From contig JBBQVH010000007.1 of assembly GCA_038211695.1 (NCBI GenBank), forward strand, positions 34,647-98,646: a stretch of 64,000 nucleotides of DNA. Direction: 5' to 3'. Positions 43,667 to 50,233 of the stretch are shown piece by piece; position 1 is the first letter of the stretch; each line of letters starts with the position of its first letter. Source of the DNA: Blastocatellia bacterium. Its GTDB lineage: Bacteria > Acidobacteriota > Blastocatellia > RBC074. A model generated the notes under the pieces. It saw nothing but the letters and a program-made list of their open reading frames with translations, was not told the origin of the DNA and searched no databases. The translations under genes and the position numbers were made by a program.

Positions 43667-44443
43667 GTGATCGGCCAGGAACACGATTTTACTCGCCCGT
43701 TCGACTCTGCTCTCGCCATTTCTCTTGGCAAAGGCCGAGCTACGACCAATTCTCCGGAAAGCAGATTATGTTTGAACTTTGTTGGAGGATTGTGTGCTGA
43801 ACGCACAGGATTGCTGTTGACGAAGGCTCGCACCTGCGTCGGGCGCGGAGAAAACTGCGACATTGTCCTTGATGGCGAGACGGTTTCGCGGCTACATTGT
43901 GAGATCGTGCGATTTGGGGCAGTTTATATTGTGCGGGATTTTAGCCGTAACGGAACTTTTCTCAATAGTCAGCGCGTGCAGCAATCACAATTGCAAGATG
44001 GCGACCAGCTTCGCATTGGGCAGAATATTCTGCTTGTTCAGGTTACGTCGGCGGCAGGAACCGGAGTTTTGAAGAGCCGGGAAACCGTCCCGCATCGCTT
44101 GCCTCCCATCATTGAGTTGAATCCGCATATCGTGGTCAAAGGGCTGGAAGAAGGTGTGACCCAGCCGTTTAACGAAGAACAGATCACCATTGGCCGCCGC
44201 ACTGACAATCATGTCATGCTCGACGCTGATAACATTTCGCGCAATCATGTTGCCATTGAGCGGCGCGATGCCAAGTACTATGCCCGCGATCTTGAGAGCA
44301 TTAATGGAACCTACTTGAATGATAAGCGAATTGATCTAGCGGAATTGCAGGATGGTGACCGCCTTCGTGTCGGCAATTACACCCTGATCATTAGTTTGCT
44401 CAATCAGGACTGCGTGTTGAATTTCAAGAAGTCAACCAAATGA
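43667..44443 (+). CDS. protein with two FHA (forkhead-associated) domains; N-terminal start uncertain
   Basis: FHA1 ...TCVGRGENCDIVLDGETVSRLHCEIV...NGTFLNSQRV; FHA2 ...TIGRRTDNHVMLDADNISRNHVAIERRDAKYYARDLESINGTYLNDKRI. Confidence 0.7.
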   Translation: MIGQEHDFTRPFDSALAISLGKGRATTNSPESRLCLNFVGGLCAERTGLLLTKARTCVGRGENCDIVLDGETVSRLHCEIVRFGAVYIVRDFSRNGTFLNSQRVQQSQLQDGDQLRIGQNILLVQVTSAAGTGVLKSRETVPHRLPPIIELNPHIVVKGLEEGVTQPFNEEQITIGRRTDNHVMLDADNISRNHVAIERRDAKYYARDLESINGTYLNDKRIDLAELQDGDRLRVGNYTLIISLLNQDCVLNFKKSTK

Positions 44444-44496
44444 CTGTAGATTGCGGATAGAGGCAGGTAAGTCCGCATCCCATAATCGTAGCACTT

Positions 44497-46404
44497 ATGC
44501 TCGGACACACTATTGGGAACTATGAAATTGTCAGTCCGTTCGGTGAAGGCGGAATGGGAGAGTTGTACCTCGGGCGCCACTCACGTCTGGCTCGCGAAGT
44601 CATCATCAAAACCATCCGCACGGAAGACTTCAGCCCGAAGCAGATCGAACATCTGCGTGACCGCCTGGAGCGTGAAGCTTTCGTTCAGTCTCAATTGGAT
44701 CACCCGCATATTGTCCGGGTTTACGATTTCATTGCCAGCGGCGATACCACCTGCATCGTGATGGAATATGTGCCGGGACGTGACCTGCGCAAAATGATTA
44801 CGCGCGAAACGGGCCCAATCGCCGATTACCGCGCACTCAAGCTCTTCAAACAGATACTGGCCGCGATTGATTACGCGCATCACTTTATCTATCTGGACAA
44901 GACCGGTGCCCGCCACCAGGGCATCATTCATCGCGATCTGAAACCCGCCAATATCTTGGTCACGCCGGATGACATTGTGAAAGTCACCGACTTCGGCATC
45001 GTCAAAGTGCGCGGCGTCAAAGGCGGCACGCAGATGGGCTTCAACCCCGGCACGCCTGAATATATGAGTCCCGAACAGGCGCGCGGGCGCGAACTTGATC
45101 ATCGTTCGGACATCTATTCGCTCGGGGTAGTACTCTACGAAATGCTCACGGGCCGTGTCCCGTTTGAAGGCGATGGTAGCGGGACTTCGGATTATGAAAT
45201 TCGCCGTGGCCACATTGAAATGACCGTCCCGCCAATGGCGAGTTACTACCCGGGCATCTCGCCGGAGCTTGAGAAGGTCGTCCTGAAATCGCTTGAAAAG
45301 AATCCTGATGACCGTTACCAGACCGCGCGCCAATTCTCCGAATTGATCGAAGAGTATGAACAGACCGGCGCGGCCAAGATCACCGGACGCATGCTCGGCA
45401 CGCGCCAGACGGTCTTGCAGGAAGGACGTGCTGTCGGACGCTCTGGCAATCTGGCCGACGCACCAACGGTGGGCATCGGCAATACGGTTCTCACCGATCA
45501 AAACCGGTTATCGAACTCAAGCTCGGCGTCGAACAACAGTGAGGGCGGTTATTCTTCGACCGATTCGGCAGGCATCAACAGCTACTCGCGCCCGCAGATC
45601 AACAGACCTGCGCAGGAGCAAAAGTCGAAGTTGCCACTTATTGCGGGAATCGCCATCCTGGCATTGCTGACCATTGGCATTTCATACTGGCTGCTGACTC
45701 GCAAGCCATTAACTCCTGATCCCAAGCTTGGTGGCGCTCCTCCGGGAATGATCTCAATCACGGGCGGTGAGTTTATGATGGGGCGCAATGACGGGAACGA
45801 TTACGAAAAACCTGTTCATAAGGTCACCGTCAAGCCTTTTTACATTGACGAGACCGAGGTGACAAACGCGCAGTACCAGGAATTTGTAGACACCACCAGA
45901 CGCCAACCTCCTCCACACTGGACGAATGGGCGCGCGCCGACCGGTAAAGCATCAGACCCTGTTTACAATGTCAGTTGGGACGATGCCAACGCCTACGCCC
46001 GCTGGGCAGGCAAGAGATTACCAACGGAAGAAGAATGGGAGTATGCCGCGCGGGGTCTGGATGGACGGCTCTACCCGTACGGTAATAAGTCCGACCTGCA
46101 ATCTTCCAATGCTTATGAAGACAACTTTTCTGAGCCGCTTGCTGTGAAGAGTTATTCTTCGGGCGCAAGCCCATTCGGCGTTTTTGATATGGCGGGTAAC
46201 GTTTCGGAGTGGACGGCAAGCGATTTCAAGTTCTACCCCGGTAGCAAGTTCCCATCTGACAATCCCAATGTCAGCAGAAAAGTGGTTCGCGGCGGGGCTT
46301 ACAATATCCCCGTGGAAAAACAAACCGCCACAGATCGGTTCTTCCAACCCCCATCAACGAAAAACAAGTTTATTGGCTTTCGCTGTGCGCAAGATGTCAA
46401 ATGA
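44497..46404 (+). CDS. Hanks-type Ser/Thr protein kinase with TM segment and extracytoplasmic FGE-sulfatase (SUMF1/DUF323) domain
   Basis: Kinase motifs GEGGMGELY, IIKT(K), HRDLKPANIL, DFGI, SPEQ; TM LPLIAGIAILALLTIGISYWLL; C-terminal GGEFMMG...YRLPTEEEWEYAARG...VRGGAY...GFRCA typical FGE-sulfatase fold. Confidence 0.85.
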   Translation: MLGHTIGNYEIVSPFGEGGMGELYLGRHSRLAREVIIKTIRTEDFSPKQIEHLRDRLEREAFVQSQLDHPHIVRVYDFIASGDTTCIVMEYVPGRDLRKMITRETGPIADYRALKLFKQILAAIDYAHHFIYLDKTGARHQGIIHRDLKPANILVTPDDIVKVTDFGIVKVRGVKGGTQMGFNPGTPEYMSPEQARGRELDHRSDIYSLGVVLYEMLTGRVPFEGDGSGTSDYEIRRGHIEMTVPPMASYYPGISPELEKVVLKSLEKNPDDRYQTARQFSELIEEYEQTGAAKITGRMLGTRQTVLQEGRAVGRSGNLADAPTVGIGNTVLTDQNRLSNSSSASNNSEGGYSSTDSAGINSYSRPQINRPAQEQKSKLPLIAGIAILALLTIGISYWLLTRKPLTPDPKLGGAPPGMISITGGEFMMGRNDGNDYEKPVHKVTVKPFYIDETEVTNAQYQEFVDTTRRQPPPHWTNGRAPTGKASDPVYNVSWDDANAYARWAGKRLPTEEEWEYAARGLDGRLYPYGNKSDLQSSNAYEDNFSEPLAVKSYSSGASPFGVFDMAGNVSEWTASDFKFYPGSKFPSDNPNVSRKVVRGGAYNIPVEKQTATDRFFQPPSTKNKFIGFRCAQDVK

Positions 46405-49366: not shown

Positions 49367-49405
49367 GCAAATCTCAAATTCCCAATCGTAAATCTACACT
49401 TCGAA

Positions 49406-50233
49406 ATGACAGACTTTAGTTACTCATTCGCGCTTCTGTTAGGTGTCAGTGTTTATTGGCTGGTGATGTTGGTTCTGGCAGCGGTCTTTGCTGCTGGAAT
49501 TTATGTTACCCGGCGTACCGATGGTCAGGGACAAATTGACGGCAGCCGCCGTTCGTTTCTGTCGGGACGCGCCAAGCAAGACGATCACGCGCTTTTCTTT
49601 GGCATTCAAATCGTGATTCAGATATTCGGCAGCGATGATTTGCGCGCGCGTCTGGCGCGGCTGGTCGAAGCCGAAGACGATACCGATTCGGCGCAGGAGA
49701 AACGGCGCTTCATCAAATCGGTCGCTTCGTTGTTGATCGAAAACCAATATGCCTGGGAATATGGTTTCTGGGATTTTCAGAGCAATGCGGACACGGCGAT
49801 CAGCAATTTCAACCAATGGCGCAATGAGATTGAAGCTTCCATGGCCACGGAGCGTGACGAAATGGGCGGTGAAGTGGATCGCATTCATCGCTTTTCGGAT
49901 CAGAAGGAATACTTGATCGTTTCGCTGATCATGCTGATTGATAATCGCGAAGAACCTGTGACCGACGACGTGGGCGATTACAGCTTTCGCGCGACGTATT
50001 CTCAATTGGCGCAGCCGTTCCGGCAGATGATCCAAAATATGGATGAAGGGGAATATTGGCGTCCGGCGACCTTCAAACAATTGTTGCAGGGGCTGCAATC
50101 GCTGGACCCGCGCGCGCTGGAACGCGATGGCACCTATGTTTATCCGGGCAGCGCGCAGGATGGATTGTCTTCAATGGATTTGATCGGCGAAGAAGGCTGG
50201 AAGTATCTGACCGATCATTCGCTGCGATACTGA
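49406..50233 (+). CDS. membrane protein, DUF1517-like (tentative)
   Basis: N-terminal TM LLLGVSVYWLVMLVLAAVFAAGIY followed by FGIQIVIQIFGS...LARLVEAEDDTDS...AWEYGFWDFQSNADTAISNFNQWRNEIEASMATERDEMG resembling the DUF1517 core as I recall it. Confidence 0.45.
   Translation: MTDFSYSFALLLGVSVYWLVMLVLAAVFAAGIYVTRRTDGQGQIDGSRRSFLSGRAKQDDHALFFGIQIVIQIFGSDDLRARLARLVEAEDDTDSAQEKRRFIKSVASLLIENQYAWEYGFWDFQSNADTAISNFNQWRNEIEASMATERDEMGGEVDRIHRFSDQKEYLIVSLIMLIDNREEPVTDDVGDYSFRATYSQLAQPFRQMIQNMDEGEYWRPATFKQLLQGLQSLDPRALERDGTYVYPGSAQDGLSSMDLIGEEGWKYLTDHSLRY

Follow-up and report, generated by a model that had tools for sequence, protein, structure and literature searches.

Do five closely spaced genes on one strand form a single signalling system, or do two systems lie side by side? 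The question is raised by a cluster in a 64-kb stretch (∼55% G+C) of contig JBBQVH010000007.1 from a bacterium of Blastocatellia, a class of Acidobacteriota from soil (assembly GCA_038211695.1), referred to here as the window. The genes, numbered g1 to g5 along the plus strand (43667-50233), encode a double-FHA protein (g1), a Hanks-type Ser/Thr kinase with an FGE-sulfatase-fold ectodomain (g2), a secreted Ig-like protein (g3), a protein with a Gly/Ser/Arg tail (g4) and a DUF1517-like protein (g5), and a preliminary description had treated all five as one signalling operon. The comparisons below divide the cluster into g1-g3 (module A) and g4-g5 (module B), the latter being found with other partners in other phyla. 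The explanation that we favour, with confidence that is evenly balanced, is that the locus is a composite specific to Blastocatellia, in which two envelope modules have been brought together and A is coupled to B.

The g4-g5 pair outside Blastocatellia

Relatives of g4 were detected in 316 GTDB species (one genome scanned per species), and when the matches of an exhaustive profile-free search were clustered at 50% identity, 670 clusters had E ≤ 1e-3 and 237 had E ≤ 1e-30. Matches covered the full length of the protein, tail included, down to ∼33% identity, and the family reached Chlorobiota, Kapaibacteria, Ignavibacteria and Polyangia. Sixteen loci from non-acidobacterial genomes (Chlorobiota, Kapaibacteria, Ignavibacteria and Thermochlorobacter) were compared by tblastn. 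g5 followed g4 in 13 of these, while FHA, kinase and g3 genes were found in none of the 16. A GSP_synth-family ATP-grasp gene lay immediately 5' of g4 in 11, usually with a DUF350 gene before it. Four distant g4 representatives, one of them from Polyangia, were looked up singly, and in all four the GSP_synth gene abutted or overlapped the start of g4.

With the g4 of Polyangia as seed, a scan of metagenomes yielded 80 further loci, 50 of which had at least 1.5 kb of upstream sequence. GSP_synth adjoined g4 in every one of these 50 (46 on the same strand directly 5', four divergent); DUF350 preceded the ligase in most metagenome loci, and the GSP_synth and g4 genes overlapped or abutted. A g5-like gene was located directly 3' of g4 in 51 of 53 loci, and the identities of GSP_synth and DUF350 in the cassette loci were confirmed by Pfam. 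As the ligase lies upstream and g5 downstream across such distant loci, the canonical unit is DUF350, GSP_synth ligase, g4 and g5, in that order. The g4-g5 pair is therefore autonomous, and outside Blastocatellia it forms the two distal genes in a cassette of four. This cassette is widespread, and no description of it was found in the literature searched.

Two other features were seen around these cassettes. A conserved protein of 282 amino acids, without a Pfam family, was encoded after g5 in L082 (3228-4076), L083, L084, L089, L090, L092 and L103, and could represent a fifth member of the cassette in Polyangia-type loci. Weak FHA and/or Ser/Thr-kinase matches lay 1-3 kb from a canonical cassette at L100:8719-11363 and L165:2534-3364; these may have arisen by chance, or the kinase association may have arisen more than once.

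Conservation of the five-gene block in Blastocatellia

The window proteins were run by tblastn against 80 g4-bearing loci fetched from the scanned GTDB species, and five-gene blocks were counted in the 37 acidobacterial species loci whose upstream sequence reached 4.6 kb or more. The order g1-g5 was kept in 30 of the 37, these being 29 loci with g1-g3 intact and one (L046) with a frameshift-fragmented kinase. Where a flank of 1.5 kb or more was available (51 loci), g3 was situated immediately 5' of g4 in 40, and g5 followed g4 in 59 of 61. Among the Blastocatellia five-gene loci the identity of g4 fell to 47%, and when g4 was placed in a neighbour-joining tree, loci with the kinase spanned the deepest acidobacterial branches, kinase-less loci forming a few derived groups. 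The genes 3' of g5 varied by locus (c14, c10, c19, GFO, c66 and c75). For this block, homologues of g3, g4 and g5 were all named Blastocatellia or Acidobacteriota wherever the source named a taxon.

GSP_synth and DUF350 were absent from the whole window, and from within 10 kb of g4 in every acidobacterial locus, in tblastn searches with nine GSP_synth and five DUF350 queries. In Blastocatellia the g1-g3 trio takes the position that DUF350 and the ligase have in the cassette. The five-gene operon of the preliminary description thus stands as a conserved gene order within Blastocatellia, where the two trailing genes are kept with the kinase. Its inclusion of g4 and g5 in the kinase module is not supported as stated; the pair is autonomous and widespread, and its partners elsewhere are DUF350 and a ligase, with no kinase.

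HAD-superfamily hydrolase genes, belonging to two clusters, recurred beside g4 in Blastocatellia loci that lack the kinase or have a variant arrangement; they lay between g4 and g5 in L038 (1444-2178), L039 and L059, and just 5' of g4 in L043, L048, L051 and L057. A gene of ∼210 codons without a Pfam family was present between g4 and g5 in L006, L019, L024 (11397-12032) and L033. The organism labels of the 'binchicken' metagenome-assembled genome records (L003, L010-L014, L020, L026, L033, L036, L058 and others) look unreliable, with 'uncultured Heliomicrobium', 'Heliobacteriaceae' and 'Alphaproteobacteria' attached to loci syntenic with Blastocatellia or Kapaibacteria.

The FHA protein, the kinase and the Ig-like protein

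The g1 protein gave a Pfam FHA match of 134.7 bits (1.5e-39) in two stretches, and its homologues aligned from residue 1. Both FHA domains keep the phosphothreonine-binding G-R, S-x-x-H and N-G residues (GR...SRLH...NG and GR...SRNH...NG). Partial NCBIfam similarities to FhaB, TagH and OdhI all scored under their cut-offs (TagH 106 against 120). In g2 the kinase domain (residues 9-276) matched Pkinase (PF00069) with 171 bits (4.4e-50; cut-off 31.7), and the HRDLKPAN and DFG motifs and the VIIK lysine are all in the translation. A single hydrophobic helix (residues ∼376-402) lies between the kinase domain and the ectodomain (416-631), which matched FGE-sulfatase (PF03781) with 207.5 bits (3.6e-61) over profile positions 3-254 of 255. 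Alignment of the ectodomain by phmmer to the FGE of Streptomyces coelicolor (6muj, 2q17) and to human FGE (1y1e) gave E values of 1e-32 to 1e-26.

The strength of the FGE-sulfatase match, together with the partial resemblance to EgtB, SenA and GldK in NCBIfam, could be taken to indicate that the ectodomain is an active FGE, or an EgtB/OvoA-like sulfoxide synthase, with the kinase reporting its activity. We consider this highly improbable. The whole of g2 contains cysteines at residues 86 and 630 only; C630, in the family-wide GFRCA motif, is the sole cysteine of the ectodomain. The catalytic LCHDSYC or MCHRSYC loop (Cys-x4-Cys) of the three solved FGEs is gapped, or faces NIPV, in g2, and both copper-ligand cysteines are missing. 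There is no DinB-like N-terminal domain, unlike in EgtB, and all the NCBIfam enzyme scores were far under their cut-offs. Because the copper-binding pair is absent from these alignments, the ectodomain is predicted to have the FGE fold without being an FGE enzyme, and FGE chemistry by this domain is, on its sequence, effectively refuted. Loss of the pair implies that the most likely role of the domain is ligand binding and not catalysis. That the FGE domain has no Cys pair and is non-catalytic had been suggested beforehand, and both suggestions are supported by the alignments.

The two family matches of g3 were borderline (CarboxypepD_reg 34.5 bits, cut-off 32.3; PEGA 22.0 bits, cut-off 20.8), and both families were carried by most g3 homologues among precomputed matches. 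The protein ends in a C-terminal domain of ∼190 amino acids without a family. A homologue search returned 186 matches, and all the source names that gave a taxon were Acidobacteriota or Blastocatellia, so that g3 appears to be restricted to Blastocatellia. Together g1-g3 constitute a conventional transmembrane phospho-signalling set; its kinase and FHA part is routine and belongs to well-known kinds.

The g4 family and its DUF1517-like partner

No Pfam or NCBIfam family was matched by g4 even at E ≤ 10, and a Pfam search at the same threshold on g4 and seven distant relatives gave nothing meaningful. Candidate starts are ATG 47945 (MARKHKNK...), 47939 and 48023; the first is favoured, and is probably correct, because the N-termini of homologues read MAKKxK. 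The N-terminus is Lys-rich, and behind an invariant SRR lies a segment of weak hydrophobicity. Of 118 distant g4 representatives, 94 have the conserved RR with an uncharged, weakly hydrophobic stretch after it, and 36 have a lipobox-like Cys, which was present in none of 117 Blastocatellia homologues. These signals suggest that the globular part of g4 is extracytoplasmic. The protein is better described as exported or signal-anchored, by prediction, than as the transmembrane (TM) protein first proposed, while the Gly/Ser/Arg-rich tail reported with it was confirmed.

The core of g4 contains the motifs DLPGP, FDNWPHPxGVV, QFDNRY and ELDDxN and an aromatic YYYGG..WWF stretch. The invariant polar residues of the family group in DLPG, NWPHPxGVV, R234, FDNR and ELDD, and these motifs fall in an alpha/beta globular core (residues 70-310) that was confidently modelled by AlphaFold. 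The conserved tail reads PSGFGRTSVR...GRSGSYGRSGGGFFGG, and its motifs P[ST]GFGR[VT]S and GRSGS[FY]GR are kept family-wide. An invariant C-terminal Gly-Gly was considered as a ligase substrate, a proposal weakened by the finding that GG ends only 43 of 124 g4 representatives, the others ending in SS, SG, GS, FG or SA.

The match of g5 to DUF1517 (PF07466) scored 30.2 bits against a cut-off of 23.3 and was partial (profile positions 6-132 of 184), and close homologues carry the NCBI name 'DUF1517 domain-containing protein'. With its N-terminal TM helix, g5 is the DUF1517-like membrane protein that had been described. In the cassettes outside Blastocatellia g5 is soluble, with 186-213 amino acids, no TM helix and no Pfam match; it appears to have gained the N-terminal membrane anchor in Blastocatellia. 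A search of the g5 profile against PDB sequences gave a chance L29 match only. Pfam presumably describes DUF1517 as 'glycine rich', which would offer the lead that the g4 tail and g5 mimic one canonical protein.

Proposed coupling of the two modules

Gene content, domain states, topology signals, conservation and the exchange of one module for another were established directly. We infer from the locus that module A is functionally coupled to module B. An alternative, which we regard as possible but doubtful, is adjacency without coupling. Here g1-g3 and g4-g5 would be separate units with their own promoters, brought together through inherited synteny, and the DUF350 and ligase partners would be encoded elsewhere in Blastocatellia genomes. 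This alternative is difficult to reconcile with the retention of the g1-g5 block on the deepest branches that Blastocatellia form in the tree of g4 despite turnover of the downstream neighbours, with the short g3-g4 gap in the window (given the start at ATG 47945), or with a g5 membrane anchor that arose in the same lineage as the kinase neighbour.

Several findings, conversely, agree with simple adjacency and weigh against coupling. g4-g5 was present without any of g1-g3 in seven of the 37 Blastocatellia loci. In one of these seven, L032 (CAWCKY010000006.1), the T2SSE-T2SSF genes directly adjoin g4-g5, and up1 (the gene divergent from g1), the FHA gene, the kinase and g3 are gone; the signalling module seems to have been cleanly deleted and g4-g5 spared. 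Neither a kinase nor g3 was found upstream of g4 in any of the 50 metagenome loci, all from outside Blastocatellia. As the pair persists without g1-g3 both in Blastocatellia loci and in all the other phyla sampled, it does not need the kinase, and, judged by the refuting condition set in the preliminary description, the kinase linkage is a lineage-specific trait that does not characterise the g4-g5 family as a whole. The spacer between g3 and g4 reaches 100-800 nt in several homologous loci, for example L041, and the tail motifs of g4 are unchanged in Blastocatellia, which would follow from the continued action of the same unseen partner on it. Synteny also extends upstream, with T2SSF/T2SSE genes adjoining g1 in 23 of the 29 five-gene loci, and conservation of the block may therefore partly mirror relatedness. 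The same side of the balance holds the following results: no PP2C phosphatase was found in g1-g5 or the flanking genes scanned (Pfam); the g4 core had no significant PDB relative by fold or profile, and no relative of known function; the structure model of g5 was unusable (pLDDT 48), so no fold search was made with it; and YgiC is no more than a distant relative of the cassette ligase.

The upstream genes raise a second alternative, namely that the FHA-kinase trio regulates a divergent type II secretion/type IV pilus-like apparatus and not g4-g5, comparable to control by FHA proteins and Ser/Thr kinases of other envelope machines. The upstream minus-strand operon encodes T2SSF, T2SSE, a secretin and two open reading frames (ORFs) with prepilin-type N-termini, its T2SSF/T2SSE genes adjoin g1 in the 23 loci mentioned above, and a divergent intergenic region of 660 nt is common to both units. 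These genes are nevertheless missing upstream in six of the 29 five-gene loci, L019 has a different gene 5' of g1, and L032 retains the secretion genes though g1-g3 have been lost. We consider regulation of this apparatus unlikely; it is compatible with the coupling of A to B.

If module A is coupled to module B, as we favour, a periplasmic cue would be bound by the FGE-like ectodomain of g2, perhaps with the secreted Ig-like g3, and the kinase would be activated. The kinase could then phosphorylate its own S/T-rich linker and/or the membrane-tethered cytoplasmic domain of g5; the double-FHA protein g1 would read the phosphothreonines on the g2 linker or on g5, and the membrane or envelope function of the g4-g5 pair would be modulated.

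A biochemical role for g4-g5 can be inferred more tentatively. Conceivably, although we would not rate it as likely, DUF350, the ligase, g4 and g5 form an undescribed, phylum-spanning envelope system, in which Blastocatellia have swapped the ligase/DUF350 input for a kinase/FHA/PEGA input. The cytoplasmic ligase and the cytoplasmic DUF1517-like protein would cooperate with the exported, basic-tailed g4, and the chemistry could be ligation of a polyamine to a g4 carboxylate before Tat-type export, or the handling of a peptide-polyamine conjugate. Were this true, the locus would represent a natural experiment in which phosphorylation, in place of ATP-grasp chemistry, controls one effector pair, and it would open the DUF1517/FLAP1 family to functional study for the first time. 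No surprising mechanism is demonstrated at the locus, and the hypotheses are testable; they concern the g4 family, the DUF1517 proteins of bacteria and what GSP_synth-like ligases act on. The main value of the locus is the g4-g5 pair itself, a large family without a Pfam model that is distributed over several phyla.

Layout of the locus and flanking genes

The ORF map and translations contain five plus-strand ORFs at the locus, with intergenic gaps of 53 (g1-g2), 25 (g2-g3), 18 (g3-g4) and 39 nt (g4-g5). The tight spacing on one strand, as well as the assignment of two FHA domains, Pkinase with FGE-sulfatase, PEGA and DUF1517, had been read correctly from the outset, the former agreeing with the ORF map and the latter with Pfam (Table 1). 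A protein identical to g2 is encoded on the Logan metagenome contig SRR19962015, where independent gene calls match the ORFs of the window.

The promoters of the up1 and g1 units are presumably located in the divergent intergenic region, and a sigma-70 consensus scan gave matches no more frequent than expected from shuffles. The hairpin beyond g5 may, on the basis of its palindrome, mark where the transcription unit ends, and the gene convergent to it encodes a GFO/IDH/MocA oxidoreductase. The count of terminator-like sites was not enriched over shuffles, and an Rfam scan of the window gave zero matches.

In the secretion/pilus operon the fusion of a secretin to a Cohesin domain is unusual. 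A gene resembling that for anti-sigma-K factor RskA is found a few kb from this operon, and two Uma2-family (putative restriction endonuclease-like) genes, ∼2 kb apart, have a prolyl oligopeptidase gene between them.

Table 1. Features of the g1-g5 locus and its surroundings, in window coordinates
Feature	Description	Position	Strand	Basis or remark
g1	cytoplasmic double-FHA protein, phosphothreonine reader	43667..44443	+	258 aa, GTG start
g2	Hanks-type Ser/Thr kinase, S/T-rich linker, TM helix, FGE-sulfatase-fold ectodomain	44497..46404	+	Pfam
g3	secreted Ig-like (CarboxypepD_reg/PEGA) protein	46430..47926	+	Pfam, signal-like hydrophobic stretch
g4	exported or signal-anchored protein (predicted), Gly/Ser/Arg tail	47945..49366	+	homologue alignments; no Pfam family
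g5	N-terminal TM helix and cytoplasmic DUF1517-like domain	49406..50233	+	Pfam
divergent intergenic region	660 nt between up1 (-) and g1 (+)	43007..43666		ORF map
hairpin	GC-rich palindrome, 15-bp stem; candidate end of transcription unit	50257..50292		24 nt past g5 stop; consensus match only
secretion/pilus operon	type II secretion/type IV pilus-like, divergent from g1	33029-43006	-	
up1	no known identity	41888-43006	-	
T2SSF		40152-41372	-	
T2SSE	with MshEN domain	38491-40113	-	
secretin	1007 aa, C-terminal Cohesin domain	35065-38088	-	
prepilin-type ORFs (two)	prepilin-type N-termini	34527-35111, 34054-34509	-	read from translations
RskA-like gene	anti-sigma-K factor RskA-like	31185-31949	-	RskA_C domain
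Uma2-family genes (two)	putative restriction endonuclease-like	57635-58531, 60369-61322	-	

Comparison with known systems

The kinase half of the locus has several counterparts. Kinase::FGE-sulfatase is a recurrent architecture, that of the 'Proteo1' family in a preprint atlas of bacterial Ser/Thr kinases (bioRxiv 10.1101/2025.01.12.632604), and g2 has the same kinase-TM-FGE-sulfatase arrangement, the likeness being one of architecture alone. PvdO, PorK/GldK and the FGE-like T6SS (type VI secretion system) immunity proteins likewise have the FGE fold without the catalytic cysteines. An FHA reader is encoded beside a transmembrane Hanks kinase in mycobacterial FhaA/FhaB-PknB and in T6SS Fha1-PpkA-PppA, as it is here; g1, however, consists of two FHA domains only, and the cluster is without PP2C, T6SS or cell-wall genes, no T6SS domains having been found by Pfam in g1-g5 or the flanking genes scanned.

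The g4-g5 cassette resembles the yjfL-yjfM-yjfC type of locus in gene content, a parallel that would tie it to polyamine/PspA-type membrane homeostasis. In E. coli the gene orders are yjfL (DUF350), yjfM (DUF1190 lipoprotein), yjfC and ygiB (DUF1190), ygiC. YjfC and YgiC currently bear the RefSeq name 'peptide--spermidine ligase'; a review attributes the peptide-spermidine ligase activity of YgiC/YjfC to Pederick et al. 2023 and gives the physiological substrate as unknown (PMC11762307). DUF350 and a GSP_synth-family ligase are shared between these loci and those of g4-g5 relatives outside Blastocatellia. Like YjfM and YgiB, g4 is predicted to be exported and ends in a Gly/Ser/Arg-rich, low-complexity tail, but it has no detectable homology to the DUF1190 proteins (hhalign against YgiB, probability 0.1; no match at E ≤ 10). 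By eye the tails are alike (RGGFGESV...SRSMGG and RGGYGRSS...HWGG against PSGFGRTSV...GGGFFGG). Homology of the g4 tail to those of YgiB and YjfM was considered and rejected, since 507 of 2000 and 1464 of 2000 composition-preserving shuffles reached the real score of the tail hidden Markov model. The cassette differs from the E. coli loci in that the ligase precedes g4 and in having the DUF1517-like gene as an extra constant partner.

Ravi et al. 2024 (PMC11237479) described operons that join YjfL/DUF350, a glutathionylspermidine-synthetase-like ATP-grasp protein ('SpermGS-ATPgrasp') and a DUF1190 lipoprotein. The window itself, unlike these loci and those of E. coli, has neither DUF350 nor a ligase. 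The same authors reported another operon (Shewanella SO_3765; PMC11237479), in which YjfL and spermine synthase accompany a lipoprotein of the architecture 'LipoSIG+Ctha_1186+low-complexity'. CesT-PspA is usually present with operons of both kinds, which they read as polyamine-linked membrane homeostasis. By architecture description, the only level compared, the g4 family is similar to this lipoprotein (lipoprotein signal, globular domain and low-complexity tail); the neighbourhood of DUF350 and a polyamine enzyme is common to both, and Ctha_1186 is named for a Chlorobi locus tag, g4 relatives being present in Chlorobiota. The SO_3765 operon differs in having spermine synthase, CesT-PspA and DUF4178 and in lacking a GSP_synth ligase and a DUF1517-like gene. 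PspA/IM30, CesT-DUF2170 and DUF2491 were not seen in the Pfam-labelled genes of four distant loci or the scanned window genes, the other loci not having been systematically scanned.

Among DUF1517 proteins only FLAP1 of Arabidopsis has been studied; it is located in thylakoid and envelope membranes, and it affects lumen acidification under fluctuating light (PMC9174948). As in FLAP1, one TM helix is combined in g5 with a DUF1517 domain that scores above the Pfam threshold; unlike FLAP1, g5 gives a partial match, is soluble and under Pfam detection in cassettes elsewhere, and belongs to a non-photosynthetic host. DUF1517 was mentioned in no DUF350, polyamine or Psp paper of the literature searched. 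The g4-g5 cassette thus extends the poorly understood polyamine-ligase loci of the YjfL/YjfM/YjfC type and connects them to DUF1517, and in Blastocatellia the same pair would be wired to a phospho-signalling module instead of a ligase.

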